From: a virus
Taxonomy: Duplodnaviria; Caudoviricetes
IMG/VR virus record: IMGVR_UViG_3300022208_000003
Coordinates: 1-62,177 of that record
Reading direction: 5' to 3' (one strand)
Length of the DNA stretch: 62,177 bases
The position numbers were made by a program, and so were the translations under genes. Each line of letters opens with the position of its first letter. The stretch's first letter is position 1. This document shows, in pieces, positions 1 through 62,177 of this stretch. The notes below the pieces were generated by a model. It was not told where the DNA came from and did not search any database. It worked only from the letters and a program-made list of their open reading frames with translations.

Positions 1-117
1 ATTGGGATAAACGTTAGCATCGCTAATGCGCTTAATATTTGCCTAAAGGTTCCTATTTTCATCATCCCCTCCGTTGTAGTAGTCAACAAAAAATAGCCCG
101 GCATTTCCGGCGCCGGG
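1..117. repeat. Exact duplicate of 244-360 (5' part of the cassette gene plus the 60-bp cassette repeat)
   Basis: Direct identity at an offset of 243 bp; the copies diverge after 117/360. Confidence 0.93.
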
Positions 118-137
118 GAGCTATGTCGTTGTAAAAA

Positions 138-308
138 TCAGCATTTAACCGAAAAGCTCAGTAATTGTATTGCCAATATAGTGTACCCAATAATTATTAA
201 TTTTTCGACAATATCACCATTATCTTCAAATCCGTATACTAAGATTGGGATAAACGTTAGCATCGCTAATGCGCTTAATATTTGCCTAAAGGTTCCTATT
301 TTCATCAT
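138..308 (-). CDS. Small two-TM membrane protein (cassette gene; paralog of 765-938)
   Basis: MMKIGTFRQ...; GGAGGGG RBS inside the repeat; two hydrophobic segments; shared DI..K...IG..I..IQL.S..V pattern. Confidence 0.75.
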   Translation of the reverse strand: MMKIGTFRQILSALAMLTFIPILVYGFEDNGDIVEKLIIIGYTILAIQLLSFSVKC

Positions 309-360
309 CCCCTCCGTTGTAGTAGTCAACAAAAAATAGCCCGGCATTTCCGGCGCCGGG
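301..360 (-). repeat. 60-bp inter-cassette repeat (terminator-like hairpin + T-tract + GTTGACTACTACAAC + GGAGGGG RBS + ATGATG)
   Basis: Identical at 58-117/62051-62110 and 301-360; partial copies near 721-762, 932-958 and 61675-61743. Confidence 0.93.
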
Positions 361-380
361 AAGATCCGTTGTGGTCAAGA

Positions 381-722
381 TCAGCTTAAATTAAAGATGA
401 ATAGATCAATTTTTTTATCAAAATAATAATTAAATTTCATAGATCTAGAATAATCTATTGAATAATATTTTAGAAATGATCTTGCCATTATTGACCTTGA
501 ATTTCCCCTTTTAACTATCTCGAAAGAGTTTTCATCGTTATCATTTATAAATTTTATGCCGACTTTATTATCTTTTTTATTATAATACAACTCAGCATAT
601 TTATAATTATTAATATCATGTTTGTCAACGAATGAAGAATTAAACGAAATAGTTCCATTTAACCATATTGATATTATTGGGTTTTTACTCTTCATCCCTT
701 TATGTTCAAATTTTTCAAACAT
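381..722 (-). CDS. Hypothetical protein (very AT-rich cassette gene)
   Basis: 113-aa ORF with GGAGGGG RBS, bounded by repeats. Confidence 0.8.
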   Translation of the reverse strand: MFEKFEHKGMKSKNPIISIWLNGTISFNSSFVDKHDINNYKYAELYYNKKDNKVGIKFINDNDENSFEIVKRGNSRSIMARSFLKYYSIDYSRSMKFNYYFDKKIDLFIFNLS

Positions 723-764
723 CCTCCCCTCCTTAGTAGTCAGTCAACAAAAAAAGTCAGCCTG

Positions 765-938
765 CTATTCATTCGGCACTGTCAAGCTCATTAACTGTAT
801 TACCCAAATTGGAACACCGATAAGCCTAATTTTTAATGCGATATCCTCCCCTGCGTACACTGCTGAAAATATCATCAAAAAAAACATTATTAGTGCCATA
901 ATGCCAAGGATTACTTTAAAACTACTTATGCTCATCAT
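765..938 (-). CDS. Small two-TM membrane protein (paralog of 138-308)
   Basis: MMSISSFKVILG...; same RBS/repeat start. Confidence 0.75.
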   Translation of the reverse strand: MMSISSFKVILGIMALIMFFLMIFSAVYAGEDIALKIRLIGVPIWVIQLMSLTVPNE

Positions 939-961
939 CCCCTCCGTTGTAGTAGTCAAAA

Positions 962-1120
962 TTAATCCATAAAAGGATTAACAATTTTCCCGCAGTACTG
1001 CTCAATCCATCGCTGGAATATCCACGCGCACCGAGTTTTCTGACACCCACGGCGGAGCGCTCCGGTACCCCAGAGAGTACGCTTGTGTTCTTTTTGCAGT
1101 CGTTTTGAGAATTTATTCAT
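962..1120 (-). CDS. Hypothetical protein, 52 aa
   Basis: MNKFSKRLQKEH...PFMD*, translated by hand; start overlaps the upstream gene end. Confidence 0.5.
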   Translation of the reverse strand: MNKFSKRLQKEHKRTLWGTGALRRGCQKTRCAWIFQRWIEQYCGKIVNPFMD

Positions 1121-1343
1121 CGTAATCAAGAACCTCACGAGCTAATTTAAAAGCTTCAACGTATGACTTTGCCTGTTCTTCTGCTTCAGCGAAAGATCCG
1201 GTGAGGCAAGCCGAAACGTCAACAGTTAAGCATTTCTTAATAGTTCCGTCCTCTGATATTCGATTTCTACTGCTTATTTTCAGGTATGGAGACCACCCTT
1301 TTTTGCAGACAGTAACGCTATCTCCATCGTGATTTACTCGCAT
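1113..1343 (-). CDS. Hypothetical protein
   Basis: 76-aa ORF with GGAGG RBS. Confidence 0.7.
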   Translation of the reverse strand: MRVNHDGDSVTVCKKGWSPYLKISSRNRISEDGTIKKCLTVDVSACLTGSFAEAEEQAKSYVEAFKLAREVLDYDE

Positions 1344-1440
1344 ATTATATTTCCTCCATCAGTTTTTAAAATAAGGATTTTCTTATTTCATTTTACGGCG
1401 TAGGTTGAAATAAGATGTTTCCATTTTGGAAATAACTCAT

Positions 1441-1656
1441 TTACCATTCATCATATAATGTCAAATCTTTGCTTTCTCCGCATGCACACTTGACAATCAC
1501 TATTGTTCCTAACCCTGTAGTAGTAAAACACCAGGTTAATCTTCCGCCTATTGCTCCTATCTTTTTACCTCCAAGTTGGTCATCTTCTAGGTGACAATCA
1601 TGAATTTCAACAAAATTTTCAGCTATCATCCTTTGTTTATTTGTTAACTCGAACAT
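1441..1656 (-). CDS. Hypothetical phage protein (Cys-containing)
   Basis: 71-aa ORF with RBS; GAIGG...FTTTGLG...CACG pattern typical of small phage proteins. Confidence 0.75.
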   Translation of the reverse strand: MFELTNKQRMIAENFVEIHDCHLEDDQLGGKKIGAIGGRLTWCFTTTGLGTIVIVKCACGESKDLTLYDEW

Positions 1657-1700
1657 ATTCCCCTCTAGTTATCTTTTTGTTCTTCCGTTTTTTCTTCTGC

Positions 1701-1901
1701 TTATTGTATCTGCTTCTTGCTCTCCTTGCATGTGTTGACATATTTCCCCCATCCAATTACTTTTTTGTATTCGTAGTTGCGCCGGAAAAGCTTGTCTGCT
1801 ATTACATTGCAAACTATGAAAATAGCTATTACAACAATAACTATTGCTGCTATCATGGCGATACTCTCGCGCAAGGTAAAATATGAAATCGCCCAATCCA
1901 T
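1701..1901 (-). CDS. Hypothetical membrane protein
   Basis: 66 aa with one TM segment. Confidence 0.6.
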   Translation of the reverse strand: MDWAISYFTLRESIAMIAAIVIVVIAIFIVCNVIADKLFRRNYEYKKVIGWGKYVNTCKESKKQIQ

Positions 1902-2123
1902 ATTAGTTCTCCATCGTTACCCATTCTCGCTTAAACATCTCTTTTGAGTGCCCACGCACCCAGCATCCGGTATCAACCACAGTACCTATTTTCGATTGCT
2001 CTGTGGTTCCGTTTGCGATAAACGCTGCACGGTGCTGATCGCCGATATTTTCGACAACATAAAATGCCGGCATCCTTACCTCGTCAAACCAGCGGTCGAA
2101 CGCTCCTGGTGTGTCGGTTGTCA

Positions 2124-2447
2124 TTACCCCATCTCCTTTAAAAGTTTGTACGCCATCTCCTCGGTAAAAAACGAGTATCGGTAACCGTCTTGCTGGTACC
2201 ATTTCCCATTGATCATTAGGCGATAGCACTTGTCAGTATGGCTGATATTTAACAAAGTTCCTGTGGCGCAGTACTGACTATCCTTGTAATAAAAAATGCA
2301 ATTCTTCCGCTGATCTGAATACGGAGCAAACTTATCAGACCATTGCTTGGCCGGATAGAGCTCAATGACTATTTCCTTCTTAAAACGCCCCGAGTTTTGG
2401 GGGCGTTCTTTGGATAGTTTTAGCACGGAGGCTCGTGGCTCTCTCAT
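2124..2447 (-). CDS. Hypothetical protein
   Basis: 107 aa; ATGA overlap with the exonuclease stop. Confidence 0.7.
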   Translation of the reverse strand: MREPRASVLKLSKERPQNSGRFKKEIVIELYPAKQWSDKFAPYSDQRKNCIFYYKDSQYCATGTLLNISHTDKCYRLMINGKWYQQDGYRYSFFTEEMAYKLLKEMG

Positions 2448-3052
2448 TTGTCGGCCTCGATATCGGCAGCAGCATCTTGTATTTGTCCAACAATCTCGCC
2501 AATTGCCATTTCGAGTAATTGATTAAATTCATCATCGCGTTGTACTCTGATTATGAAAGGCTTTATTCCTGGATAGTAGCTCATAAAGTCCCACCACTTG
2601 CGCCCGGTGACGTAAAGTGATCCATGGACCTGCCGGTGGTACTCAGCAGGCAGCTTGCCGGATCTCAGGTATTTTATGTGCGTGCTTAGCTTTGGGCATT
2701 TTATTTCAAGGCCGCCGTCGTCACCAATAAGGCCATCAGGAGAGCAACCACACTGCGGGCTTTCTTTTGCGATAAATCCAACCTGCCTGACCTCAACGTC
2801 TCGCGTGAACTCGTATAGCTCACGTGCTTCTCCCTCAAGATCAATCCCGCGTTGCATCCATTCGTTCTTAAAACCATCCTCAGTATGACCAAGCAGACGT
2901 TCCCCGACCAGTTGATTGACGTAATCTTTGCACGAGGAGCTAAAAGAGCCGTTTGCTTGTATTATTTTACCGAAATTTGAAGCTGTTGGGATACCTGCTC
3001 TCGCTGCATGCCATTCTGGTGTTCCCTGTTCTATTTCGTCATAAATGATCAT
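2444..3052 (-). CDS. YqaJ / lambda-exonuclease family recombination nuclease
   Basis: EQGTPEWHAAR, TAS, CSPDGL, LEIKCP motifs. Confidence 0.93.
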   Translation of the reverse strand: MIIYDEIEQGTPEWHAARAGIPTASNFGKIIQANGSFSSSCKDYVNQLVGERLLGHTEDGFKNEWMQRGIDLEGEARELYEFTRDVEVRQVGFIAKESPQCGCSPDGLIGDDGGLEIKCPKLSTHIKYLRSGKLPAEYHRQVHGSLYVTGRKWWDFMSYYPGIKPFIIRVQRDDEFNQLLEMAIGEIVGQIQDAAADIEADK

Positions 3053-3744
3053 TTTTTTGACCTCAAGGCGGTTAACGCTTTACTGTATACCTGCCGAGGT
3101 ATAGCCTCAACCGATGGACACCTGATATACTTCAAGAATGCCTCCTTATCGGCAGATTTTTCCTTGATGAGGTCGTTGATTATTCCTTGCTCTTCCTCAG
3201 TGATAAATTGAACATGCTGATTTCCATCGCGGTCCTCATCTGCTATGGCAAGATTGAAAATCATTATCGTTAAATATCTGCGAGCGTAAGAGATTGAGGA
3301 TCCCCTGGCGTGGGTGTCTGTCTTGTTGACCTTGCCGGCTATTCCCTTATTGTCAAGCGGACAATCATATTGGTAATTTTTACTGAAACCGTCTTTATGC
3401 GAAACCTCGCATTTAACCAGTAGATGCCCTTCTATTTCAGATTTTCCGGTGTCAAATGATAATGCGAATCCATGGGCAGTATATACAGGTATTATCAACC
3501 TGTTTATCGCCTCAAGCCTCGCATATTTTGAATTTGTCTGCTGATTGCTTGCATCCTTGACTATCGGACGGATCTCTTTTTGCGCTTCACTCATCGCCCT
3601 ATTGAAAGAGATCATGGCCTCTCTTTCCATGCTTCTCTCGTGCAGCTCAAAAAGCTTCTCCATCTTGGCAACATCCAAATCTGGATTCATTGCCGCATCG
3701 AGTATCGGCGAGCCTGTTTGCGTTGTCGGTAAATTGTCGCTCAT
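3049..3744 (-). CDS. ERF-family single-strand annealing protein
   Basis: SKYARLE, GSSISYARRY, DEDRDG motifs; coupled to the exonuclease gene. Confidence 0.9.
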   Translation of the reverse strand: MSDNLPTTQTGSPILDAAMNPDLDVAKMEKLFELHERSMEREAMISFNRAMSEAQKEIRPIVKDASNQQTNSKYARLEAINRLIIPVYTAHGFALSFDTGKSEIEGHLLVKCEVSHKDGFSKNYQYDCPLDNKGIAGKVNKTDTHARGSSISYARRYLTIMIFNLAIADEDRDGNQHVQFITEEEQGIINDLIKEKSADKEAFLKYIRCPSVEAIPRQVYSKALTALRSKK

Positions 3745-3771
3745 ATTCCCTCCCGGTGGTTAGTTTCTCTC

Positions 3772-3799
3772 ATTATACAACACGGACTTGTCTTGTCAA
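3772..3799 (-). promoter_or_regulatory. Sigma70-type promoter of the ERF/exonuclease operon
   Basis: TTGACA-16-TATAAT. Confidence 0.75.
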
Positions 3800-3817
3800 T
3801 ATTATTTGAGTGATGTT

Positions 3818-4057
3818 TTATATTCTGTTGACTCCGTGGGCTTTGCCATGGCAATGGATGCAAAGCGTGACGAGATTTTCCATGGTGTCCGGCCCACCGT
3901 GTGACCTGAAAATTATGTGGTGAGGAACATCAAGTGGATACCCGCCAGGGCAATCAGGATCTTGGCACGTGTAATCGTCACGTTCTATCACTGCCGCGAA
4001 TAGGTCTTGCAGCGGTTGCCCTTTTAATCTGATCGGCTTTTTCTTCGGATATTGCAT
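3818..4057 (-). CDS. HNH endonuclease
   Basis: RDDYTCQ...HHIIFRSHGG...NLVTLCIHCH. Confidence 0.9.
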   Translation of the reverse strand: MQYPKKKPIRLKGQPLQDLFAAVIERDDYTCQDPDCPGGYPLDVPHHIIFRSHGGPDTMENLVTLCIHCHGKAHGVNRI

Positions 4058-4560
4058 TATATTTCAATTACCTTTGGTCTTTTATTAGTTAGCCCAAGAA
4101 GCCAATCGTGAACATCCTTCTTCGGAATTGTGATTGGTATTTGCTCATGGATTGCGTAAAACTTTATTCTCGTGAGATATTTTGCCATTGGTTTTGATTT
4201 AAGACCTCTTGTCGATATCTCTCGTGCAAGAGCCTTTGCCGCTTTTTCGTATTTTTCAGTACCTTTTTCTAAGAGATTTACCGCCTCAACTAGGCATGGA
4301 AAATAATCTCACATTTCAAGTTTTATGTTGATAAGGTACCGCTCTTTGAAATACTCATGCATATTTTCAGGAGTCCGACCGTAATATTCACCTATTTCCG
4401 TGTTCCACATCCATAGGGTTCTATTTTGGTGACCTGTTTTATTGTCATCAAACTTAAGGACCTTCACCGTCCACCTTTCGTCCTCGGGCAATTCCTCGAT
4501 TACCTTCAGGACTTCGATGCGGTCGGACGGTGAGGTTATGGTGTATTCTGTGGGTTTCAT
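4057..4560 (-). CDS. NinB/Orf-like recombination protein with an in-frame TGA at 4309-4311 (recoded or pseudogene)
   Basis: N-half QNRTLWMW...HEYFK; the frame stays open 83 more codons (..ISTRGLKSKPMAKYLTRIKFYA..) and ends in a TAATG overlap with the HNH gene. Confidence 0.7.
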
Positions 4561-4709
4561 TTATAATTAACTTTGAACGGAGTTTCACACATCAAACATT
4601 CGGTGCGCTCTAAATCCTCAGCAAACTCTGTGTTGACAAAATCGCATTTTGGGCATGTCCATTCCCAGTAAGTTTCAGGAATAAATTTTACCGATTCTAC
4701 CTCTTCCAC
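4557..4709 (-). CDS. Small zinc-finger protein
   Basis: GTG start with GGAGGGG RBS; WTCPKC...CLMC. Confidence 0.7.
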   Translation of the reverse strand: MEEVESVKFIPETYWEWTCPKCDFVNTEFAEDLERTECLMCETPFKVNYK

Positions 4710-5352
4710 TCTCCCCTCCTTTCACGGGCGGCACGATGCCGCCCGGACTAATAACAGTTGACAGTCTATGATACTTGCCGAGCTATATTTTCAACCGGCT
4801 CGGCTATTCGGTTTTTCGCCGGCGGCGTACAAATTAAATATTGGAATCAAATGCATAAACAACCATATCGCAATCCTCTAATTAAGTTGACATGCTTTCA
4901 GCCGGCATGGTTTCGGCTTATTCAATATTAGTACCGCGCTTTGGAGTGGCGCGGCTCACTCTTCATGCATCCACAAAATTGCCAATTGGCCAGCCCATAC
5001 ACCGTCCACCCCGGTGCGGTTCCTGGCGGCTATGCCTGTTCCGATTTTTTTGGCTTTCGTACCTCAACACCGGCTGGCCTCGCGGTGTTGCCTCCACACG
5101 CTCCTCCGGGTGGCCGGCCTGGAGGATTAGGTGGAGGATGGTTAGTAGGAGGGTGATCATTCTTCAATAACCATCATCTCATCATGTCCAATTGAGAATA
5201 TATAATTTCTATATTTAGTTATCACACAGAAATAACCTGCAACAATTGCTTCTGTTATGTCTGTGACATCTTCGATTACTGTTGGGCTCATCTTTTCTTT
5301 TTGTATCGTTACCTTCATAACTTCCCTCATCGTTAAATTTTGATCATGCCTA

Positions 5353-5444
5353 ACCGTATCCTTTCACGGGGACTATGTCAACAATAAAATTCACCACAGA
5401 TAATTTTTTTAGTGGTTGACTTATCCTTTTGTGGGGAGTATTAT
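5353..5444. promoter_or_regulatory. Divergent sigma70 promoters sharing an operator-like spacer motif
   Basis: Minus: TTGACA-17-TACGGT (5381-5353). Plus: TTGACT-17-TATTAT (5416-5444). Both overlap TATCCTTT-N3-GGGGA. Confidence 0.7.
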
Positions 5445-5463
5445 TGATAGGTAAGGAGGTATT

Positions 5464-5649
5464 ATGGAGACGAAAGATATAATCAAAGCTCTACGCAAGG
5501 CCGGGCATGCGGATAAGGATGTCGTGAAGGAGCTCGGCACGGTGAAGCTAAAAACTTACTGGAATTGGTTCAATGAGACAACGAGCCCAAGTAAGGCAAA
5601 TAAGAAGCTCTTGCGTCAATTAGCTGCTGGGAAGGGGGTGAAGGTGTGA
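5464..5649 (+). CDS. Small Cro-like HTH protein
   Basis: 61 aa; IIKALR...VVKELG..KLKTYWNW....TSPS; first gene after the promoter. Confidence 0.65.
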   Translation: METKDIIKALRKAGHADKDVVKELGTVKLKTYWNWFNETTSPSKANKKLLRQLAAGKGVKV

Positions 5650-5906
5650 ATCGATGCCTATTACCACAATCAGAACAGGCCGAGCTTCGCGCCGGAGTGT
5701 CATTGGCACAAGCAGATTACGACGAGGCTAAATCGCGCTTACGTCTTTCTATTTTGAATGTATCGCCTAGCATGACCAAGGCACAACTTGATATGATTGA
5801 ATTGCGTATCGATGCGTTTGAAAGTGCTCTTATTGATTTGGTCAGCTCGCAAAACATAGCAATTAAAGCCGGATTGACGGCTGAGGGGGAACGATGGGAA
5901 AAGTAG
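5646..5906 (+). CDS. Hypothetical protein
   Basis: 86 aa; GTGA overlap. Confidence 0.65.
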   Translation: MNRCLLPQSEQAELRAGVSLAQADYDEAKSRLRLSILNVSPSMTKAQLDMIELRIDAFESALIDLVSSQNIAIKAGLTAEGERWEK

Positions 5907-6226
5907 ACGAATCGATAGTTAAAATTTCTCGTGATCCGAGATGCCTATTAACATTTATTGCGCATCAACCATACGATTTGTATGGAAAACATTCAGAATC
6001 ATTCGCATTCTCAATCCACGAGGATGCATTGAGAGCATTGGTTAGCGAAGAATCATGGGCATTGCTTGATACTGGAGGAGAGCTCCATTTTAAGCTGGTA
6101 GAGGTGGAGTGGGTCAACGAGTTGGAACAATTCATAAAGAATGGTGTTGAATTTGGATATATTACCATTCCAGAAGAAGGAGATCCGGCCAGAGATATAA
6201 TTGATGAGATTATCGGTGATAAATAA
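5894..6226 (+). CDS. Hypothetical protein
   Basis: 110 aa with RBS. Confidence 0.7.
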   Translation: MGKVDESIVKISRDPRCLLTFIAHQPYDLYGKHSESFAFSIHEDALRALVSEESWALLDTGGELHFKLVEVEWVNELEQFIKNGVEFGYITIPEEGDPARDIIDEIIGDK

Positions 6227-24865: not shown

Positions 24866-25533
24866 TTTTTACCCCATAGAGCAGGTTCAACAAACGCTTT
24901 GACCATTTCTTCTCGATACTCAAGGCCTAACCATTTAATAACTTCTTCGATCTCACTGAAATCTCCACCTATCATCTTTGACGGCCAAACCTCACGAAGA
25001 TTCAGCCCGGCAATTTTCATTTGAGAGAAACGTTTTTCATGCTCTTCCACCCATCGCAACCAGCCAACAACATCACGGTAAGCCCGCATGAAGCTGGTCT
25101 GCATGCATGACCTTGCAATATCGTTTTTATCGCGGCGAACGATTATCCATTTAGCATCAGGAAAAGCCATATGCCAGAGCAGCCAGATAAGGCACATCTT
25201 CGCGCCTTTGTAGAAATACGGCCCACCCTTGTAACCTTCCTCGGAGAACACGGTCATCACCTTAGCTCGCCATCTATCAGCCTGTTCTTGGTTGACGTTG
25301 AATATCTGCTGTGTAGACGGTAGGGGTTTTTGCCCAAGCTGATCGCATTCTATTCCTTTTAGATAAGGCTTAACGATTGTCTGGCGGATGCGGTCATTTT
25401 CAAACATGCCCTTTTTGTTGTACTTGTTTGGCCCGTTCATCCTGCCGCCAAACGCACCACATACGTTTATTACTCCGGCGGTCATAGAGGTTCCGGACCG
25501 AGCAGCACCGGTTATAAGGATAGGGCTGTTCAT
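24862..25533 (-). CDS. Sulfotransferase-family (P-loop) protein
   Basis: ILITGAARSGTS 5'-PSB motif; IIVRR...IARS 3'-PB-like motif. Confidence 0.8.
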   Translation of the reverse strand: MNSPILITGAARSGTSMTAGVINVCGAFGGRMNGPNKYNKKGMFENDRIRQTIVKPYLKGIECDQLGQKPLPSTQQIFNVNQEQADRWRAKVMTVFSEEGYKGGPYFYKGAKMCLIWLLWHMAFPDAKWIIVRRDKNDIARSCMQTSFMRAYRDVVGWLRWVEEHEKRFSQMKIAGLNLREVWPSKMIGGDFSEIEEVIKWLGLEYREEMVKAFVEPALWGKK

Positions 25534-27947
25534 TTCCAGTACCTCTTTACGATATCAAGATGCTGCATGTTGTGGGGCTTTTGGTTGCCGTGGAAGCAGA
25601 TAATCTTTGCGTCCGGCGGCACACCTGTTGAGCAGTGTCTTTTATAGCTATGGATAGGCATAAAATCGTTGATTGGTTTTATATCGACTCCTGCTCCCTG
25701 TAAGGTGCGGAATATATAAACCTGGTCCCATCCTTTACCTTGCCGATGGTCCTTAAATTTATCGATTATATACCTGAAATCACCATGCCAAGCCATAACC
25801 CCTGAAGCCCAGTTACCAGCCCTTTTCCTTGCAGGGTTAAAAGGAACCAGCATTCTGAATTCGCCTTCAGGCATTTTCTTAACCGAGTCAACAAGCTCGG
25901 TGATATCGTCAATTATTACCGTATCAAGATCTATATAAAGGACCGGTCCTTTAAGCCTAAACAGCTCGAGCTTTGACCACCAGCCCTCAAGCTCGTTGAT
26001 AAGCTTTATACTATCTGTAAGGACATCTTCAGAGTCAGTAAAAGTCACAAAGTCGTATTTTGTTTTAACGAATCTATTTGCCATACTTTCAAGCTTTTCG
26101 GCATATAGATTATCAAATACTCCTCCGGTTTTAAGCACGCACGCGATAGTTACAGGAGAATTTCTCTTTATCAATTCTCCTGATTCGCATTTTCCAGTGA
26201 ATCTATTTACAGCCTGATTTATATCTACAACCGGTTTAACCTGTGGCGGCAACCTATCTGGCGGGTTAAGTTCTTTATTGTCATGATTGATCACGATTTG
26301 CCTTCTTTCGTAATCTTTCCCTTCAAGGATAGAGGTTGTAGTGTAAAGTAAGCTTTCAACTTCCAATCCTCTAGTATTTTCAATAAAATAAGTTTTGTTC
26401 TTTACATCGTCAGGTGCGCAATGCCAGGCGAATTGCCGATTATAGTAATCATTCCAGATTATCAATGTTTTCAAATTGAAACATGCAGCCGATATCGTAA
26501 GGCCTGACGGGTAACCGATAACCATTTCAGCACCACGCATGAGGCCGAAAAGCTTTTGAATCGTGGTCTTTCCTGTCAGATCAACGTATTCGGTTGTTTG
26601 CCTCATGACCTTTTGCAACCCAATGTCTTCTGAATCCCACTTCGCCCCTGTAAAAACTATGGTACAGCCTGTTTTTTGATGCAGTAAGTTTAAATATTCA
26701 GCTATTCGTGGGATTTCGAATTGTCTTGACCAGTAAGAATAAGTACCAAAAAGAGGCCAATAAACAACAATATACTTTCCATATATTTCTTGGCATTCTC
26801 GCTTGAAATTTTCTTGCTCAAGAGAAATGAACATTGGAGGGCGCCAGTTTGTTGCAAGGTCTTGGTCTATATCCTCCATCCTTTTGCCGATTCTAAGATG
26901 ACCGTTATATGAGATAAAAAAATCACATCCAAGTATATCCTTAAAGATCGTCCTGCCTTCCCTTGCGTATGCCTCGCGCCATATTTCTTTATGTGGTCCG
27001 TTTGCGTGTTTAACCTCTCCAGTTACGTTAAGGAAAGGGAACATCTCAAGGAACGGAAACGACCTCTTGTGTCCGTTATGAGCCTTATCTCTTGGTGAAG
27101 CGATAAAGACGTCAGGAAGCCCTAACTTTTCCCTCTCAAGAAAAGCCTGAAGCTTTGTTACCGACCAAAAAGAATCACCTAGTCCTGGAGGAAGTAGTAT
27201 TGTAGGCCTATCCTGGGAAGGTTTAGAGCAAAAGAAAACCACCTTTGACGATATAGGTTTCTTTATATTTTCTACCTTAAACCCCGCATCTTTCAGCAAT
27301 AGCTCGAGCTGTCCTGCGGTAAAATACCAAAGATGCTCCTTTTTCCAATGGTGCGCCCCGTCTTCCGCGTAAAAGTCCGGAATATCGATTATGCATGTAC
27401 CGCCTTGGTCGGTAACCCTGAACAGCTCGGCAATGAATGATTTGGGATCAAGCGTATGCTCAAGGACGTCATGGCAAGTTACGATTTTGAAGTGGTCTGT
27501 CGGGAAATGTATTTCCTCAAATTCTTTGCGATAAATGAATGAATTGTCTTTCAGGGAAGCGTAATCAGCTATCTCACAACCAAAAGCGGATGCACCTCTT
27601 GCCCGGCACTCATCAACAAAAGCCCCAGAGCCTGCCCCAACGTCAAGAATCCTCTCTTCAGCTCCGGAAATTATTCCGTATAGATTGCACCTTTTGCGTG
27701 CAAGTTTACGGTCATGCCCATAGCTCTTAGCCTGGTACTTTTTAGAAACAGGTTGATATTTTGAGTAAAACTTTATGGATTCACTTTTCGTGCAATAAGG
27801 AGGTGCTGTCTGGTGGATTACTCCACATTTTGAGCAGATCTCTACCGACATGTTATCTTTAGCCGGCACCGTCTCGCCTAACTCTGTAACCTCGTAATAT
27901 GGCCTTGTAGATCGCTCGGCCTTATCGTTTCCGCAAAAGCAATTCAT
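25530..27947 (-). CDS. Fusion of class I SAM methyltransferase, GT9-like (GT-B) and GT-A glycosyltransferase domains
   Basis: ILDVGAGSG and HDVLEH; GLGDS and DLTGKTT; WWSKLELF, YIDLD, DQ and CFHGNQKPH. Confidence 0.85.
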   Translation of the reverse strand: MNCFCGNDKAERSTRPYYEVTELGETVPAKDNMSVEICSKCGVIHQTAPPYCTKSESIKFYSKYQPVSKKYQAKSYGHDRKLARKRCNLYGIISGAEERILDVGAGSGAFVDECRARGASAFGCEIADYASLKDNSFIYRKEFEEIHFPTDHFKIVTCHDVLEHTLDPKSFIAELFRVTDQGGTCIIDIPDFYAEDGAHHWKKEHLWYFTAGQLELLLKDAGFKVENIKKPISSKVVFFCSKPSQDRPTILLPPGLGDSFWSVTKLQAFLEREKLGLPDVFIASPRDKAHNGHKRSFPFLEMFPFLNVTGEVKHANGPHKEIWREAYAREGRTIFKDILGCDFFISYNGHLRIGKRMEDIDQDLATNWRPPMFISLEQENFKRECQEIYGKYIVVYWPLFGTYSYWSRQFEIPRIAEYLNLLHQKTGCTIVFTGAKWDSEDIGLQKVMRQTTEYVDLTGKTTIQKLFGLMRGAEMVIGYPSGLTISAACFNLKTLIIWNDYYNRQFAWHCAPDDVKNKTYFIENTRGLEVESLLYTTTSILEGKDYERRQIVINHDNKELNPPDRLPPQVKPVVDINQAVNRFTGKCESGELIKRNSPVTIACVLKTGGVFDNLYAEKLESMANRFVKTKYDFVTFTDSEDVLTDSIKLINELEGWWSKLELFRLKGPVLYIDLDTVIIDDITELVDSVKKMPEGEFRMLVPFNPARKRAGNWASGVMAWHGDFRYIIDKFKDHRQGKGWDQVYIFRTLQGAGVDIKPINDFMPIHSYKRHCSTGVPPDAKIICFHGNQKPHNMQHLDIVKRYWK

Positions 27948-42854: not shown

Positions 42855-42875
42855 TATCCTATCCCCTCCTCATTA

Positions 42876-43791
42876 GCTCCATATACAACCATTATATTAT
42901 ACTCAATGATGGTTTCATTCATGAAATTTGAATACTCACAATTATTCCGTCTTCAAATTCAATCGTAGTACCTTTTCCGCCATTGCTAGCGAATAACGCC
43001 AATGGAATTCTTCTCACACCTAAGCTCTCTAGCGATCCGACTTTTTGCACGGCAACTCTTACCGTCTCCCCTTCCCTCTTCAGCTCACTAAGAATCTCGT
43101 CAATACGCATCATTTTCCCGTCCAATAACCTTCCTCTCCAGAGCTCCAGAACCCTCAAACAACAACGTCTTATTTTCACCGCTACAATTATCTATAACGG
43201 CAGATCCTGTGTACCCATGACTTTCAACGGTGACGTAATCGTTTTCATGACAGCTTTGCAAGATATGTAATATTGATTCTTCATCCTCAAAAAAAGCAAA
43301 CCCTCTCCAATATCTCAAACCAGGCTTACCGCCAATTCCGTAGTCTTGCGAAAAACTAAGTTTGATCATACAGGGGATGCCGTTGATTGTTCCGTTTTTC
43401 TCGCTCATTATTCCAACCCCACATCATCATCAGCGGTGCTATTTCTTAGCCCCCAGAGCCCTTCCCTGTATCTGTATATCGTTACTTCCTCACCTTCAGA
43501 TATAACCATCAGCCCATGCTTTTTACAGAGGGCTTCATACTCCCTGTAAAACGCTTCGTAATTTTCCGGAAGTTTGCCATCCCACGATTCACACCAGCCG
43601 TCCTTCTTGCCTTGAGCGTATTCAATGACGTCAAGATCAGCCTTCTTGCATCTTACTAGGTCGTTTTCTATATTTTCGACATTAGATCTTTCAAGGTTTA
43701 TGCACGTATCGCACCATCTATTCATCCCCCCTCCTCCTTGGCTCCATATACAACCATTATATTATACTCAATGATTGTTTCATTCATGAAA
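42876..43791. repeat. 51-bp direct repeat (42876-42926 and 43741-43791, one mismatch) flanking three small ORFs
   Basis: gctccatatacaaccattatattatactcaatgat(g/t)gtttcattcatgaaa. Confidence 0.9.
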
Positions 43792-51948: not shown

Positions 51949-52024
51949 TGGAGCCGCCTCCAGGATTCGAACCCGGAACATTCTCATTACAAATGAGAGG
52001 TTCTTCCATTTGAACTAAAGCGGC
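51949..52024 (-). tRNA. tRNA-Thr(UGU)
   Basis: 76-nt cloverleaf; acceptor GCCGCTT/AGGCGGC; anticodon arm tctca-tttgtaa-tgaga; GGTTCGAATCC T-arm; encoded CCA. Confidence 0.95.
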
Positions 52025-53827: not shown

Positions 53828-54199
53828 TCATTCGTCCTCCACCAGGTCTGCTATTGTTATCTCGTCAAATCCAGCCATTAACTCGTTTTCTGACCGCTCC
53901 ATGTACCAGTCGATCTTTCCGCCGCCGTTGCGGTTAAAATGGAATGGCCCGCCGCAGATCTCCAAAACTTCAAGCAGCGTGATTTTATCAGGGCTTTTTA
54001 TTAGCACTGGTCCACCCCGGCTGCCCTGCCTGATTTCAATCAGGCCCCTCTTGCTTAGGTCTTGTAGAATCTTGGCGAGAAAATGGGTTGAAATCCCTTC
54101 CGCGTCAGCAATTTCTTGACGACTTACGACAATTCCTACTCCTGCCCTTGCCAAGTAACGCATGGCCTGGAGTGCGTATATTTGCTGGTTTGTAATCAT
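53828..54199 (-). CDS. Rrf2-family transcriptional regulator
   Basis: YALQAM.YLA, EIA..EGIS.HFLAKILQDL, G.RGG..L..SPDKITLLEV. Confidence 0.9.
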   Translation of the reverse strand: MITNQQIYALQAMRYLARAGVGIVVSRQEIADAEGISTHFLAKILQDLSKRGLIEIRQGSRGGPVLIKSPDKITLLEVLEICGGPFHFNRNGGGKIDWYMERSENELMAGFDEITIADLVEDE

Positions 54200-54210
54200 T
54201 TCCCCTCCAA

Positions 54211-54873
54211 TTATTCCGGATATCTTTCCAGGTATTTTTTCATTGCATCACCATAGCCATCCCAGGTATCGACTCCGTGTCTTATAAGGCAATCAAGCTC
54301 GTAGTCTCTTTTTTTGAGTCTTGCCAGTTCAGCTTTTTCTACGACGAGATAATCTCCACCAGGATGCCGATTGCATAGGTCCTCAAGCTCAGAAAGCTTT
54401 GCTTTCTTTTCGGCTATTTCTAAAATCAATTTATCGTTTTCCTTTGCCGCTGAAATCCTAGCAATATTTATTGCCTCGATTTGTTTTTTAAGATTTTCGG
54501 CGAGTTTTTCGTTTTTACTTGTCTCAATCTCAAGAGCTTTTTTCCTATTGGCAAGCTCTCCAACAGCAAGAGCTAAATAATGAAGCTCTTCAACCGCCTT
54601 CTTTGTCTTTTCCCCGACCTTAGCCATCGGTTCTTCGACAAAGATAGCGTTTACGAGCCGCTGCGATCCATGGTGCTCGTAAGGAATATCCCTTTCAAGA
54701 GTTGGCCCTCCAACACAATAAATTTCCATTGCTTTCCCCTCGTAGACAGGAGTCACGAGGTATTTTGTCTTTCCTTGGCTATCGGTGACGCAATCGTCTA
54801 GGACTACCTGTTCCCCTAGTTCATTGTAATAATACCTTCCTATTACCGCCTCTTGCCCATCAGTTGTTACCAT
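54211..54873 (-). CDS. Coiled-coil phage protein
   Basis: 220 aa; C-terminal L..HGVDTWDGY. Confidence 0.7.
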   Translation of the reverse strand: MVTTDGQEAVIGRYYYNELGEQVVLDDCVTDSQGKTKYLVTPVYEGKAMEIYCVGGPTLERDIPYEHHGSQRLVNAIFVEEPMAKVGEKTKKAVEELHYLALAVGELANRKKALEIETSKNEKLAENLKKQIEAINIARISAAKENDKLILEIAEKKAKLSELEDLCNRHPGGDYLVVEKAELARLKKRDYELDCLIRHGVDTWDGYGDAMKKYLERYPE

Positions 54874-55066
54874 TTCCCCTCCAATTATTCTGGATATCTT
54901 CCCATTGATTCATATGATCACTAATAATATTAGCGAGCTTCTGTTTAAACCTTGAAGCTCCAGCGAAGTCGCAACACACTGAAGCGTGTAGCAAAGATTC
55001 GTTTCCGTATTTTTGCTCTGCCATCCACTCATACAGCTTCTCTGCAAGTTTTTCTGCATCAGACAT
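54860..55066 (-). CDS. Hypothetical protein
   Basis: 68 aa with GGAGGGG RBS. Confidence 0.65.
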   Translation of the reverse strand: MSDAEKLAEKLYEWMAEQKYGNESLLHASVCCDFAGASRFKQKLANIISDHMNQWEDIQNNWRGNGNN

Positions 55067-55264: not shown

Positions 55265-55293
55265 TTGACTATGCACCTAGCTTCGGTTATAAG
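55265..55293 (+). promoter_or_regulatory. Sigma70 promoter with an ACC(G/T)A-N3-TCGGT operator
   Basis: TTGACT-17-TATAAG; ACCTAGCTTCGGT in the spacer. Confidence 0.7.
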
Positions 55294-55909: not shown

Positions 55910-55938
55910 TTGACTCTATACCGAGCTTCGGTTATATT
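55910..55938 (+). promoter_or_regulatory. Sigma70 promoter with a palindromic operator
   Basis: TTGACT-17-TATATT; ACCGAGCTTCGGT. Confidence 0.8.
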
Positions 55939-55985: not shown

Positions 55986-56144
55986 ATGAAAAGAATGATG
56001 AACATCCCGGCAAGCAAAGAGTACGACGGAACCTTCCAGACGAAAGAAGACGGAATGGCGATAATCAAGGCGGTCGCCACAGTGAAAGGATGGCCGGCAA
56101 TCGTCCTAACAAGAGAGCTGGATAGCTGGAAAGATCGATTCTAA
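55986..56144 (+). CDS. Hypothetical protein
   Basis: AAGGAG RBS before MKRMMNIPASK. Confidence 0.6.
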   Translation: MKRMMNIPASKEYDGTFQTKEDGMAIIKAVATVKGWPAIVLTRELDSWKDRF

Positions 56145-56187
56145 GAAAAACGCCCCCGAAAGGGGGCATCATTTAACGGAGAAGGAA

Positions 56188-56496
56188 ATGAATATATACG
56201 ACTTTATAGGTGGTACGGCAAAAAAATTTAAGTTAGGTGATCTGGCCATAGTTAAATGGCCTGATTCTTGTCATACCTGCAAGGATTCACAAGCTGAATA
56301 TAGGATAGGAACAATAGTAAAAATTGTCGAAATAATAAAAGGACCAGGAGACGAGTATTATCATTGCTTGTCACTCGGAGATTTGGCACTTAATGATTGC
56401 GATGAAGGTTGGTATTACTATGATAGAGAATTATCTGAATTGGAATCAAAGTCTGAATCTTACGAAATCGAAGAAAAAATCGAACTGATTGACTAA
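56188..56496 (+). CDS. Hypothetical protein
   Basis: 102 aa between hairpin/RBS repeats. Confidence 0.7.
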   Translation: MNIYDFIGGTAKKFKLGDLAIVKWPDSCHTCKDSQAEYRIGTIVKIVEIIKGPGDEYYHCLSLGDLALNDCDEGWYYYDRELSELESKSESYEIEEKIELID

Positions 56497-56780
56497 GACG
56501 AAGAGAAATACCCCGGAAAACCGGGGCATCATTTAACGGAGAACGGAAATGAAATACCAAGATTGGTCACGAGTAGAGTCAAGAGAAAGTTCGGACTGTT
56601 CAGCGGAATTATTTGTGCAGACTGACGAAAAGCAGGGACCTGAGGTGTGACATGCCAGAGTTGTTGTCACTCCATTTTCCACGCATTGTCCGACCTGTGG
56701 AGAGATTTGGGCATGCGATTCAATATCCGTATGCCCTGGATGCGGTGAACAATATCCTGAGGAGTGGTAAATAAACTCTC

Positions 56781-59449: not shown

Positions 59450-59848
59450 TCACTCCTCTATCCGTTTTTCTTCCATTGATTTCATAAGCCCGCCACTCAT
59501 ATCCATAATCTTCTTGCCGCGCTGCTCGTATTTCTCAGCGTATTTTTCGGCAAGCATTTGAACGTCTGATTTAAGGGCTATCCCCCACATCAAGTGTCCG
59601 TTTGCATCTATTCCTTGAGGGTAATAGCCATGTTCCTCCCTAAGCATCGAATAAAGCAAAGCAACACGTGACAACTCATCATCAGATAGTTGACATTTTT
59701 TCTCGTATTTGTTAGATTGTTTTTCCGAATAGTATTTGTAATGCGTTTCCAGCAGGTACATATCCTCCTGCGTTATTGCCTGCTGAGGCGTTTTCTTTGT
59801 GCTCACCAGAGGAGGTCTCTCGTAACAAGGGGTTTCCGTATTTTTCAT
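59450..59848 (-). CDS. Hypothetical protein overlapping the rep 3' end
   Basis: 132 aa with AAGGA RBS. Confidence 0.65.
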   Translation of the reverse strand: MKNTETPCYERPPLVSTKKTPQQAITQEDMYLLETHYKYYSEKQSNKYEKKCQLSDDELSRVALLYSMLREEHGYYPQGIDANGHLMWGIALKSDVQMLAEKYAEKYEQRGKKIMDMSGGLMKSMEEKRIEE

Positions 59849-61445
59849 AGATTTCCTTCTTCATCTCCTCTTTGCTTTTAAAACGCCGTTTTTGAGACGA
59901 TTGACTTTCCATGGGGTAATCCTCCCACCTTCTATCAGTCAACCAACCTTGACACCATTTTGGCGTTCCTCCACGCTGTATGATGCCGTCCCTCTCCCAC
60001 GCTTCTTTTTTGGCGGCGTAAATTATCCACTTTGCCTTTTCAGGGGAATAATCTTTTATGTCCAGCCAAGAGTCGGCGGCTGCGGCTTTTCCTTTCTTGT
60101 AGTCGAATGCGATCCAGAATTCTTCGAAGTCGGCAAGACGTTGTCCTTTTAGCCAGCGGTTCTTTTTGGTTCGGTATTTTGGCTCTTCTGGTTTTCCTCC
60201 AGCATCTCCTGATATTTTTCCTCCGCATTCCCGAATAAATTCTCTGTCGGGATTTGTATCTCCTCCGCCAAGGCAGATATCAGGCACGCAACCTTTACTT
60301 TCTCCGTTTCCTGGTTTTTTATCCTCCTCTCCGCATCCTGTAAGGCTTGGTCCATACGTTTCATCACTACCGTATGAATTTTTACAGTTTTGATCTCCAT
60401 TTCCAGTTCTGCAATCCTTTCTTCTTGCTCCTTCATTTCCTTCCATGCCGCATCCAGCCCCCTGCGGAGTTCCTTGTTCTCCGATTCCAGCTCTTCTCCC
60501 ATCTCTTCCAGACAGTTTATTCTCTTCAGCGCTTCCCTTGCCTCTCCTTTCATCTCCTCTTGTTCCAACTCCAGGGAGGAGAGTTTTGCTTCCAGGTTGT
60601 TGATTGCCATCACAAATGCATTTCCGCTTCCCATTGCCTATTCCTCCGTCCTTATCGTTGACTTCGTTGTTGTTGCTGTCATTTTCATAATCTAAGGTGA
60701 TTGTTATTTCGTTTGGTACTTTTCCAAAACCTCTATCGCCTTGTCCTGATATTCCGACGCTTGATGTTGGATCTTTTCTGTCCTTTCTATCAGCTTCCCA
60801 AGTTCTATATCGTGCTTGATCGTTATGGCTATCGCAATCAGTAGAACTATGGTCAGGCATATGTTTGCTATTTCCATTTTCATCCTCGATAGTGAGATTG
60901 GCTGATTCGGGTACCGAATCGGCTATATTATCTTTTAAAGAAGGAGAAGGAGAAGGAACAGGGGATGGAGTAGGAGTAGGAGATGGGGCATTGCCCTCCG
61001 CATCGATCCGCATGCCATCAGCATCATTCTGCAATGCATCCCGCATGCCCTCCGCATTATCATCAAGATTTTCCTCTATTTTTTTCTCTTTCTTTCTCCA
61101 TCTTACTAAAGCTGCCTTTCTTGCTAGTTCTGATCTTTCGTCAGCATGGAATGCATAACTTTGATGCTCTTTCCAGTCATGTATATAATAAACACCTTCT
61201 TTGAAATCCATGAATCCTATATCGACAAGGGCATCACAAAATTGTTTTGGATCTCCACCCCAATTCGCATCCATTGCGATATCTTCATGATCCATATCTT
61301 TAAGTATGCCCTTAGGTTTATTTACGGCCACACTTAACCATAAATCTATCAGAGATAAGACAGCAGTCTTTCCCAATCTTGATTCGAGTTTTTTACGTTT
61401 ACGATGGGTTAAAAACGACGTTTGCAGTCTTATATCTGTGTTCAT
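59712..61445 (-). CDS. Phage replication initiator / replisome organiser
   Basis: N-terminal wHTH-like region (LIDLW...YYIHDWKEHQ), PSP linker, C-terminal FEEFW..F..KKGK..A...W...QGWL..RRWED; ATGA-coupled to the HTH gene. Confidence 0.82.
   Translation of the reverse strand: MNTDIRLQTSFLTHRKRKKLESRLGKTAVLSLIDLWLSVAVNKPKGILKDMDHEDIAMDANWGGDPKQFCDALVDIGFMDFKEGVYYIHDWKEHQSYAFHADERSELARKAALVRWRKKEKKIEENLDDNAEGMRDALQNDADGMRIDAEGNAPSPTPTPSPVPSPSPSLKDNIADSVPESANLTIEDENGNSKHMPDHSSTDCDSHNDQARYRTWEADRKDRKDPTSSVGISGQGDRGFGKVPNEITITLDYENDSNNNEVNDKDGGIGNGKRKCICDGNQQPGSKTLLPGVGTRGDERRGKGSAEENKLSGRDGRRAGIGEQGTPQGAGCGMEGNEGARRKDCRTGNGDQNCKNSYGSDETYGPSLTGCGEEDKKPGNGESKGCVPDICLGGGDTNPDREFIRECGGKISGDAGGKPEEPKYRTKKNRWLKGQRLADFEEFWIAFDYKKGKAAAADSWLDIKDYSPEKAKWIIYAAKKEAWERDGIIQRGGTPKWCQGWLTDRRWEDYPMESQSSQKRRFKSKEEMKKEIYEKYGNPLLRETSSGEHKENASAGNNAGGYVPAGNALQILFGKTI
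60149..60634 (-). CDS. Nested out-of-frame coiled-coil protein
   Basis: 161 aa with its own GGAGG RBS, heptad E/K-rich composition, and a paralog at 59056. Confidence 0.65.
   Translation of the reverse strand: MGSGNAFVMAINNLEAKLSSLELEQEEMKGEAREALKRINCLEEMGEELESENKELRRGLDAAWKEMKEQEERIAELEMEIKTVKIHTVVMKRMDQALQDAERRIKNQETEKVKVACLISALAEEIQIPTENLFGNAEEKYQEMLEENQKSQNTEPKRTAG
60704..60883 (-). CDS. Nested out-of-frame TM-anchored protein (59 aa)
   Basis: MKMEIANICLTIVLLIAIAITIKHDIELGKLIERTEKIQ...*; GAGG RBS; same frame as 60149-60634. Confidence 0.5.
   Translation of the reverse strand: MKMEIANICLTIVLLIAIAITIKHDIELGKLIERTEKIQHQASEYQDKAIEVLEKYQTK
60988..61058. other. Putative iteron-containing replication origin inside rep
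   Basis: Repeated tgccctccgcat and ccgcatgcc units next to a purine-skewed tract, as in lambdoid O-type genes. Confidence 0.5.
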
Positions 61446-61630
61446 GCAGCTTTTTCCGAGATAAGAGGTTTCATCTTTTCTTTTATACCTATTGCTGTCA
61501 AATCCGGTATGCGTTGTCTTCCAGCTTCCCACCCGCAATACCCACTTATAGATACCCCAAGATGGTTGGCCATTTCCTGCTGAGTGAGCTCTGCCCTTCC
61601 CCTTAATTCTTTTAGATCTTCTCCGGTCAA
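61442..61630 (-). CDS. XRE-family HTH protein (Cro-like)
   Basis: LKELR..AELTQQEMANHLGVS......WEAG...IP; AGGAGG RBS, TTG start. Confidence 0.88.
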   Translation of the reverse strand: MTGEDLKELRGRAELTQQEMANHLGVSISGYCGWEAGRQRIPDLTAIGIKEKMKPLISEKAA

Positions 61631-61674
61631 TTAAATCACCTCCTTTTTTAGAATTAATTAATAATAGCATATTT

Positions 61675-61743
61675 TAGTAGTCAGTCAACAAAAAAATAGC
61701 CCGGCATTTCCGGCGCCGGGGCTCCGTTGTGGTAAGAATCAGC
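61675..61743 (-). repeat. Variant cassette repeat: hairpin terminator whose TTGACT acts as the -35 of the HTH/rep promoter
   Basis: cccggcgccggaaatgccgggc-tattttttt-gttgact, then TTGACT-16-TATTAT with an extended TG. Confidence 0.75.
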
Positions 61744-62058
61744 CTAAACCCAACCCTTTTCGAGAGTCAATAGCCGTCTTGAGCTCATTTGTTTTTGTAA
61801 TATGCGGTACCATGCAGGCCATTTTGACACTGCCCCAGGCATCCCAGGGAGTAACTTGCAATAAAACGCCATGCACCTGTAACCAATCTCAGGATTGTGA
61901 GCTGGAGCAAAAAAACCAAATTGCAGTCCATGCCAACCTTTAGGCATGAATCCTTGGCCTATAAAAACTGCTGTGTATCTGATCTGCATGCGCAGTAAAG
62001 TATTGGCGCACTGTCCACTTATTACGTTTTTGTCAATAATGATAAAACGATTCATCAT
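61744..62058 (-). CDS. Hypothetical protein (cassette gene)
   Basis: Starts ATGATG inside the repeat; ends before the variant repeat. Confidence 0.6.
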   Translation of the reverse strand: MMNRFIIIDKNVISGQCANTLLRMQIRYTAVFIGQGFMPKGWHGLQFGFFAPAHNPEIGYRCMAFYCKLLPGMPGAVSKWPAWYRILQKQMSSRRLLTLEKGWV

Positions 62059-62177
62059 CCCCTCCGTTGTAGTAGTCAACAAAAAATAGCCCGGCATTTC
62101 CGGCGCCGGGGAGCTATGTCGTTGTAAAAATCAGCATTTAACCGAAAAGCTCAGTAATTGTATTGCCAATATAGTGT
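62051..62177. repeat. 127-bp terminal overlap with 58-184 (circular assembly junction)
   Basis: Direct sequence identity; 127 is a common assembler k-mer size. Confidence 0.93.

Follow-up and report, generated by a model that had tools for sequence, protein, structure and literature searches.

The 62,177-nucleotide window analysed here (IMG/VR virus record IMGVR_UViG_3300022208_000003, positions 1 to 62,177) belongs to an uncultured tailed phage of a lineage unrelated to the T4-type phages, and both of its ends lie within an array of small minus-strand genes separated by copies of a composite linker, in which a terminator-like hairpin is followed by a ribosome binding site (RBS). We favour the reading, to which we assign a probability of roughly 0.6, that this linker is a regulatory element resembling the PeSL elements of T4-type phages and doubles as a substrate for homologous recombination in a hyperplastic region of accessory genes. 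The depth of an independent assembly and the contigs of a related phage suggest, at the level of sequence, that genes have been duplicated, lost or swapped at the linkers.

Organization of the linker

The array has six junctions (J0, J1, J2, J3, J3b and J4; Table 1), and a single composite module between its open reading frames (ORFs), as described in the initial annotation of this sequence, is confirmed. It starts with GCTGA at or after the upstream stop codon and a tail of ~20 nt containing an ACAACG(G) box, continues with the hairpin CCCGGCGCCGGAAATGCCGGGC, CTA and six or seven T residues, and ends with GTTGACT(GACT)ACTA and CAACGGAGGGG-ATGATG, the ribosome-site end, a strong Shine-Dalgarno site, being also written ACAACGGAGGGG-ATGATG. 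GCTGA is located at or just past all four stops as reported, with the correction that gene2 and gene3 stop at the TGA within GCTGA and that it comes after the stops of gene1 and gene4. The 22-nt hairpin is present in four exact copies, identical at 22 of 22 positions (Table 1), with matches in none of 100 shuffles, and the 24-nt RBS box TTGACTACTACAACGGAGGGGATG likewise in four (63-86, 306-329, 936-959 and 62056-62079; 0 expected). The 21-nt GACT variant TTTTTGTTGACTGACTACTAA has two exact copies (733-753 and 61674-61694; 0 expected) and ACAACGGAG has five, every one within the array (0.35 expected). Three copies of the module are identical at 60 of 60 positions from the hairpin to ATGATGAA; J2 and J3 agree at all 60, and J3b is identical to J3.

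The hairpin contains seven base pairs, six of them G-C, followed by a T run, and thus has the sequence pattern of an intrinsic terminator; it is present at four of the six junctions. The junction previously noted to lack it is the one between gene1 and gene2 (J1). The last junction, J4, was proposed to have become the promoter of the helix-turn-helix (HTH) and replication genes, and the HTH gene is indeed preceded there by TTGACT and a TG-extended TATTAT spaced 16 nt apart, a promoter scoring 10/12. A scan with the consensus promoter finds a promoter-like site at this one junction of the six, with TTGACT lacking a -10 partner at J0 to J3b. The 1,295-nt block containing gene2, two copies of gene3, and gene4 is situated between perfect 23-nt direct repeats belonging to the module (T7-GTTGACTGACTACTAA; repeat family D20), and gene4 between perfect copies of ACAACGGAG.

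A second copy of gene3 at the contig ends

The array includes a fifth unit that was overlooked initially, with both contig ends located inside a second, identical copy of gene3. Positions 1-142 equal 244-385 except at eight positions, all in the tail between GCTGA and the hairpin, and 62177-62051 is identical to 184-58 over a run of 127 nt, with position 62177 corresponding to 184. The period of the gene3 unit is 243 nt and the gap between the contig ends is 59 nt, giving a closed length through the missing segment of ~62,236 bp. The record itself is classed as linear, with an estimated completeness of 88%, so that the circular junction proposed in the initial annotation is something we infer, with good support.

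All sampled sequence words of window 1-6000 are present in run X1, probably the source run, and the Logan contigs of X1 represent an independent assembly. The single-copy flanks have depths of 21.6 (a 42.6-kb contig), 22 (an 18-kb contig) and 21.2 (the gene4 contig), compared with 46.1 for the 242-nt gene3 unit (89-330), 66.2 for the 60-nt core (301-360) and 70 for a 31-nt hairpin word. The resulting ratios, 2.1x (gene3 unit) and 3.1x (core), match the prediction of two gene3 copies and three core copies, and these sequence data fit a real tandem duplication of gene3 with its junction inside the module. The array layout is then tail-a, core, gene3, tail-b, core, gene3, tail-b, core, gene4.

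An alternative is that the end repeats and the second gene3 copy arose from a mis-resolved loop in the assembly graph, such that the array is shorter than it appears. Both contig ends do lie inside a repeat with 59 nt missing between them, and an exact repeat of 60 nt could exceed the word size of a short-read assembler; however, the X1 depth ratios come from an independent assembly, and the module is also present in contigs of another study. Moreover, were there just one gene3 copy, the array would keep all its four genes and five of its six junctions, and we consider an artefact extremely unlikely.

Different genes at the same linkers in a related phage

Runs X2 and X3, two runs of one other sediment study, contain 6-8% of the sampled words, and their contigs can be placed in pieces on 750-5959 with a likeness of 80% to >99%. 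No contig lies on 1-330 or 386-749, and the evidence is taken from bridging contigs alone. Each run contributes one contig (lengths 1,928 nt and 433 nt) that spans gene1 (750-956) and has an in-frame duplication of 9 nt; past the T-tract it continues for 30 letters, the first 28 of which are unique to 61656-61683 in the HTH promoter. Because these letters stand next to gene1, the gene2-gene3-gene3-gene4 block is absent from the X2/X3 phage. At their other side the same two contigs pass from 956 into 331-385 (shorter side, 55 nt), placing a full module of tail-a and hairpin upstream of gene1; in the window this module lies between gene2 and gene3. Beyond the relative's upstream module the sequence, with another gene, is unlike window 1-6000. 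Another X3 contig contains a homologue of the ORF at 962-1120 and the RBS box, followed by unlike sequence in place of gene1.

Comparison of these contigs with the window therefore shows the same linker joining different gene pairs in two related phages, with the differences ending inside linkers. Gene content and order are not the same in all relatives, the point on which the initial annotation had let its proposal hang; content differs, and the differing units are bounded by the module. The HTH promoter of the relatives is without the 4-nt GACT duplication found in both window copies (61674-61696, compared with the loose end at 750), a duplication that sets the TTGACT-TATTAT spacing of the window at 16.

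Searches for further copies of the array cover several collections. Neither Megablast with the two ends of the window as queries against 50,697 phage records nor blastn in distant mode with window 1-1200 yields a match, and exact scans of IMG/VR for the hairpin and the RBS box yield none either. The hairpin scan gives one match in metagenome contigs and two in genome contigs; these are rejected as chance because they lie in GC-rich, coding-like DNA without a T-tract or TTGACT. The replication initiator has no relatives in IMG/VR. The exonuclease has 202, with a top identity of 56% among the best 80 of the 202, and the module motif is present at none of these 80 loci; in the motif scan of exonuclease loci 83 of 87 are without a match, the other four being the window itself.

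Proposed recombination between linker copies

In the reading that we favour, transcription from the early promoter at 3799 would read through the Erf, exonuclease and small genes with stepwise attenuation at the hairpins, each ORF being re-equipped with the same ribosome site by its linker, and at the last copy (J4) TTGACT, paired with a -10, would drive the HTH and replication genes. Since the linker copies are identical over 23-60 nt, they can serve homologous recombination as substrates. If the cores preceding gene3 and gene4 exchanged unequally, exactly the tandem duplication of gene3 would result; a crossover in the two 23-nt T7-GTTGACTGACTACTAA copies would remove or add the gene2-gene4 block, and one in a pair of RBS boxes would remove or add a gene, together with its hairpin, upstream of gene1.

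An ERF protein and a YqaJ exonuclease are encoded near the array as previously reported (Table 1), and this pair is the likely catalyst, given its presence 1.5-3 kb upstream. The Erf/Exo pair of phage D3 matches lambda Red in recombination efficiency, on diverged substrates as well (PMC3945230), and Erf/exonuclease pairs are described as efficient in lytic growth, also with short or diverged substrates (PMC3945230). The description of the array as free of an integrase also holds, with no PF00589 and no PF00239 match in the window and a positive PF00589 control in 14 of 14 genomes. The broader interpretation offered in the initial annotation survives in part: the module bounds variable units and does so in the absence of an integrase, but there is no sign of a dedicated plug-in system, as nothing sets the array apart from ordinary homologous recombination between repeats.

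Such a dedicated system would be an integron-like array without an integrase, in which a site-specific factor recognises the hairpin or the ACAACGGAG boxes and cassettes move as circles. Several features are in keeping with it: the ACAACG(G) box upstream of each hairpin repeats the RBS box, gene4 is bracketed by its perfect ACAACGGAG copies, the cassettes are without promoters of their own, and the same combination of tail and core separates one gene pair in the window and another in the relative. Nevertheless, neither a tyrosine nor a serine recombinase is present among the products of the window, the hairpin resembles those of terminators in being a simple GC stem followed by T residues, and homologous exchange over identical segments of at least 23 nt accounts for every observed difference. 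Neither circles nor empty sites were seen in the contigs, the only material available for this, and site-specific capture seems to us very improbable. A related but rather doubtful notion, which we rate slightly higher, is that of a viral gene-capture platform, in which the same box ACAACGGAG brackets each ORF, at the ribosome site and before the hairpin, and circles with one linker re-insert at any linker of the same or a co-infecting phage, driven by Erf and the exonuclease. If true, this would be a functional analogue of the integron, lacking an integrase, in a phage lineage far from T4.

Several observations weigh against the linker as a recombination substrate. The relative is known from short metagenome contigs of two samples from one study, at a likeness of at least 80%, and the shorter side of one X2 joint (385 to 931) measures just 26 nt. 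The collections searched yielded no other relative that carries the module. The copy number of gene3 derives from the mean word depth of short contigs and could be mimicked by a co-occurring strain sharing gene3. No alternative joints are present in the X1 contigs, although contigs drop rare variants, and no recombination products were observed directly, contigs alone being examined. J3 and J3b, as the duplicated copies themselves, are trivially identical, and folds of whole junctions compared with shuffles (z from -0.99 to +0.51) give no structure signal past the hairpin. Finally, in X3 the window segment 1121-1898 is replaced by 524 unrelated letters without a module or repeat at the ends. 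On the minus strand this segment, 200 nt upstream of the array, lies between the ATG codons at 1901-1899 and 1120-1118 and is made up of precisely three small ORFs; its replacement implies that the module is not needed for gene exchange in this lineage.

That module-free replacement is in line with an alternative explanation, in which the modules are purely regulatory signals that were copied together with duplicated genes and are held by selection, with the differences in gene content reflecting general mosaicism at gene boundaries. The paralogy of gene1 and gene3 shows that duplication has taken place within the array, and other intergenic repeat families (promoter/SD and terminator/SD, SD denoting Shine-Dalgarno) are present elsewhere in the window. 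Set against this, modules are 100% identical while the paralogous genes have drifted to 53% nucleotide identity, so that homogenisation or recent spread is needed; the unrelated gene2 and gene4 have the same flanks; and all three differences within or next to the array (the gene3 duplication, the gene2-gene4 block and the relative's extra gene upstream of gene1) end in module copies. We view a purely regulatory role as unlikely.

Comparison with PeSLs, morons and integrons

PeSLs are composite promoter/stem-loop/SD motifs that lie beside orphan genes in T4-type phages and bound insertions and deletions between close relatives (PMC2839356, Arbiol et al. 2010; PMC4122927, Comeau et al. 2014). 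Mini-circles have been shown, and the elements are described as mobile regulatory cassettes involved in gene shuffling (PMC2839356). As far as these accounts characterise them, the array shares with PeSLs a repeat spanning the upstream stop, a stem-loop, and the downstream SD and start; a location in a hyperplastic region of small orphan genes, here between the recombination and replication modules; the presence or absence of genes between relatives bounded by the repeat, here in short contigs of one other study; a proposed mechanism of homologous exchange between repeat copies without a dedicated integrase; and a stem-loop fit for termination or attenuation, at the sequence level and at four of six junctions. 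By the same accounts it differs in that five of six junctions have no promoter, the unit being a terminator and SD rather than a promoter and terminator, in that identity reaches into the first two codons (ATGATG), and in that one near-identical family occupies a single 1.8-kb array, compared with ~50 diverged copies across a PeSL genome. Unlike the T4-type PeSL phages, the phage carrying the array has a tape-measure protein, an Erf/YqaJ module and a portal less than 38% identical to that of any cultured phage. The array works like the PeSLs so described but is not classed as one, because a promoter is present at just one of six junctions; the idea of the mobile cassette is itself already known (PMC2839356). 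A literature search for PeSL-like elements outside the T4-type phages brought up just the two PeSL papers and a few papers citing them, which is not proof that none are in print.

The morons of lambdoid phages, which Juhala et al. are said to have described in 2000, are reportedly inserted genes with their own promoter and terminator and a deviant composition, located between genes that are adjacent in a related phage. The array genes likewise lie between genes adjacent in the relative (gene1 and the HTH promoter in X2/X3), a hairpin and T run follow gene2, both gene3 copies and gene4, and the composition of gene2 is deviant (22.8% GC compared with 43.4%), although that of gene4 (43.2%) is not. 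In contrast to morons, the cassettes are without their own promoter (J0 to J3b), one repeated linker is common to several unrelated genes, and one unit is tandemly duplicated.

Integron cassette arrays have an adjacent IntI tyrosine recombinase, and their attC sites are imperfect palindromes with conserved core sites at both ends. Like integron cassettes, the array genes are small promoterless ORFs in one orientation, each followed by a hairpin element, and their content varies between relatives. However, there is no IntI-type integrase in the window (0 PF00589), the hairpin is short, with a perfectly paired GC stem and a T run in place of an attC site, and the repeats take in the ribosome site and start codons. 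GTTGACT and the ACAAC box show a partial resemblance, judged by eye, to the integron core-site consensus.

How phages gain and lose small accessory genes without damage to the neighbouring genes is partly understood, with PeSLs being one answer for the T4-type phages. Host takeover, exclusion or counter-defence is the role of many such genes. A linker of similar kind but different construction, with a terminator and ribosome site and an optional promoter, in an unrelated uncultured phage would suggest that the principle is more general, namely that the expression signals of a gene double as the homology that moves it. Three signatures are useful here (a recent tandem duplication, a block lying between 23-nt direct repeats, and a relative whose cassettes differ), and identical linkers between unrelated small ORFs provide a search image for accessory-gene hotspots in viral metagenomes.

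The genes of the array

All four minus-strand ORFs are present at the coordinates originally given (Table 1), and their GC contents are heterogeneous (22.8%, 32-36% and 43%). None of the four has a Pfam match at the cut-off. Gene1 and gene3 were proposed to be divergent paralogues with two transmembrane segments, and their products do share 19 of 55 residues (35%; E 2e-8), with two hydrophobic segments in each; at the nucleotide level 90 of 171 positions are identical (53%). Part of the array thus arose by duplication. Homologues of the gene1 product with 84-86% identity, the proteins P0002 and P0003, are encoded on Logan contigs, and gene3 has no homologue but itself in a search of 5.8 billion proteins. 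P0002, from a contig of 4,680 nt, has a 17-residue N-terminal extension starting with MM and a C-terminal extension through a J1-like junction. The N-terminal extension may result from reading through a variant of the module in which a small hairpin directly follows ATGATG, corresponding to an 'empty' cassette site.

The extremely AT-rich cassette recognised initially is gene2, at 22.8% GC in a window of 43.4%. Gene2 and gene4 are members of two distinct families, both widespread among metagenomes and phages. Neither, used as a single query, recovers a relative in IMG/VR. The gene2 family has 590 representatives at E<=1e-3, and no Pfam match at or above the cut-off in any of the 50 members scanned. 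Its AlphaFold2 (AF2) model is mostly beta (pLDDT 96.7), and the fold matches solely uncharacterised phage proteins, among them Gp105 of Lactococcus phage KSY1 (E 3.7e-7, TM 0.74) and a protein of Bacillus phage Mgbh1; there is no sequence match in the PDB, and no fold match there at E<=0.001. Gene4 has 10 homologues (59-78% identity) and is part of a conserved family of ~100 aa in which positions occupied by Cys, His and Trp are invariant; the family lacks a Pfam domain. Contigs of 38.6 kb and 1,681 nt are among those that encode relatives of gene4. Its AF2 model is poor (pLDDT 66.5), with no usable match in the Atlas. One gene4 homologue is located on a 68.9-kb IMG/VR contig (L088, 6010-6303) among small early ORFs and without the module. 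Downstream of it on L088 are an ORF resembling a DNA methyltransferase and one of 777 aa resembling a primase/helicase, their functions being judged by eye.

Genome context

All genes around both ends of the window are on the minus strand, in the 5' to 3' order promoter, Erf, YqaJ exonuclease, several small ORFs, the array, the HTH gene and the replication initiator. A promoter matching the consensus at 12 of 12 positions (3799-3772, minus strand) lies upstream of the Erf and exonuclease genes. The proteins of the window include a terminase, a portal, a head protein and a tape-measure protein of 1,125 aa, and the portal is at most 37.7% identical to its best match among the 50,697 phage records.

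Table 1. Array junctions, array genes and flanking genes, listed along the minus strand.
Feature	Coordinates	Strand	Description
Erf-like annealing protein	3049-3744	-	Candidate recombination function
YqaJ-type exonuclease	2444-3052	-	Candidate recombination function
J0	936..959	-	RBS half-module (TTGACTACTACAACGGAGGGG-ATG), no hairpin; between ORF 962-1120/1138 and gene1
gene1	765..938	-	57 aa, two hydrophobic segments, gene3 paralogue
J1	723..764	-	CAG-GCTGA-C, T7, GTTGACTGACTACTAA, GGAGGGGAGG; no hairpin
23-nt direct repeat, left copy	733..755	-	Within J1
gene2	381..722	-	113 aa, 22.8% GC, widespread uncharacterised family
J2	309..385	-	Full module; GCTGA 381-385 with gene2 stop, ACAACGG box, hairpin 339-360, T6, GTTGACTACTACAACGGAGGGG
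gene3 copy A	138..308	-	56 aa, two hydrophobic segments
J3	64..142	-	Full module, hairpin 96-117; 8 differences from J2, all in the GCTGA-to-hairpin tail
gene3 copy B, 5' part	1..63	-	5' 63 nt, identical to 246-308, runs off the contig end
gene3 copy B, 3' part	62131..62177	-	3' 47 nt with stop, identical to 138-184
J3b	62059..62135	-	Full module, hairpin 62089-62110
gene4	61744..62058	-	104 aa, 43.2% GC, conserved uncharacterised family
J4	61631..61743	-	GCTGA, ACAACGGAG, hairpin 61699-61720, T7, right copy of the 23-nt repeat (61674-61696)
J4 promoter		-	-35 TTGACT 61683-61688; TG-extended TATTAT ending at 61661; then SD of the HTH gene
HTH regulator	61442..61630	-	62 aa, first gene past the array
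Replication initiator	59712..61445	-	577 aa from the ATG at 61445; phrog_9474, E 3.3e-22

The 652-aa ORF at 59712-61670 (minus strand) in the mechanical ORF list is a read-through artefact, the start of the initiator being at 61445, just past the HTH gene. The initiator has a long low-complexity middle, and a 161-aa ORF (60149-60634) overlaps it in another frame.

Four more intergenic repeat families, each with two copies, are present in the window (42863-42926 and 43728-43791; 54190-54230 and 54864-54904; 55265-55291 and 55910-55936; 56144-56188 and 56504-56548). They include a 64-nt unit with copies that are 95% identical and that looks like a -10 plus SD, a plus-strand pair of TTGACT-type promoter-like sites, and a plus-strand pair of terminator-like hairpins with different stems and a shared downstream AACGGAG-type ribosome site. 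From their sequences, repeated regulatory linkers seem to be a style of this genome.

An Rfam scan of the window finds tRNA only, with no family on the array; the tRNA-Thr (TGT) gene is located at 51949-52024 on the minus strand. A protein of 805 aa (25530-27947, minus strand) has PHROG matches of both methyltransferase-like and glycosyltransferase-like types.

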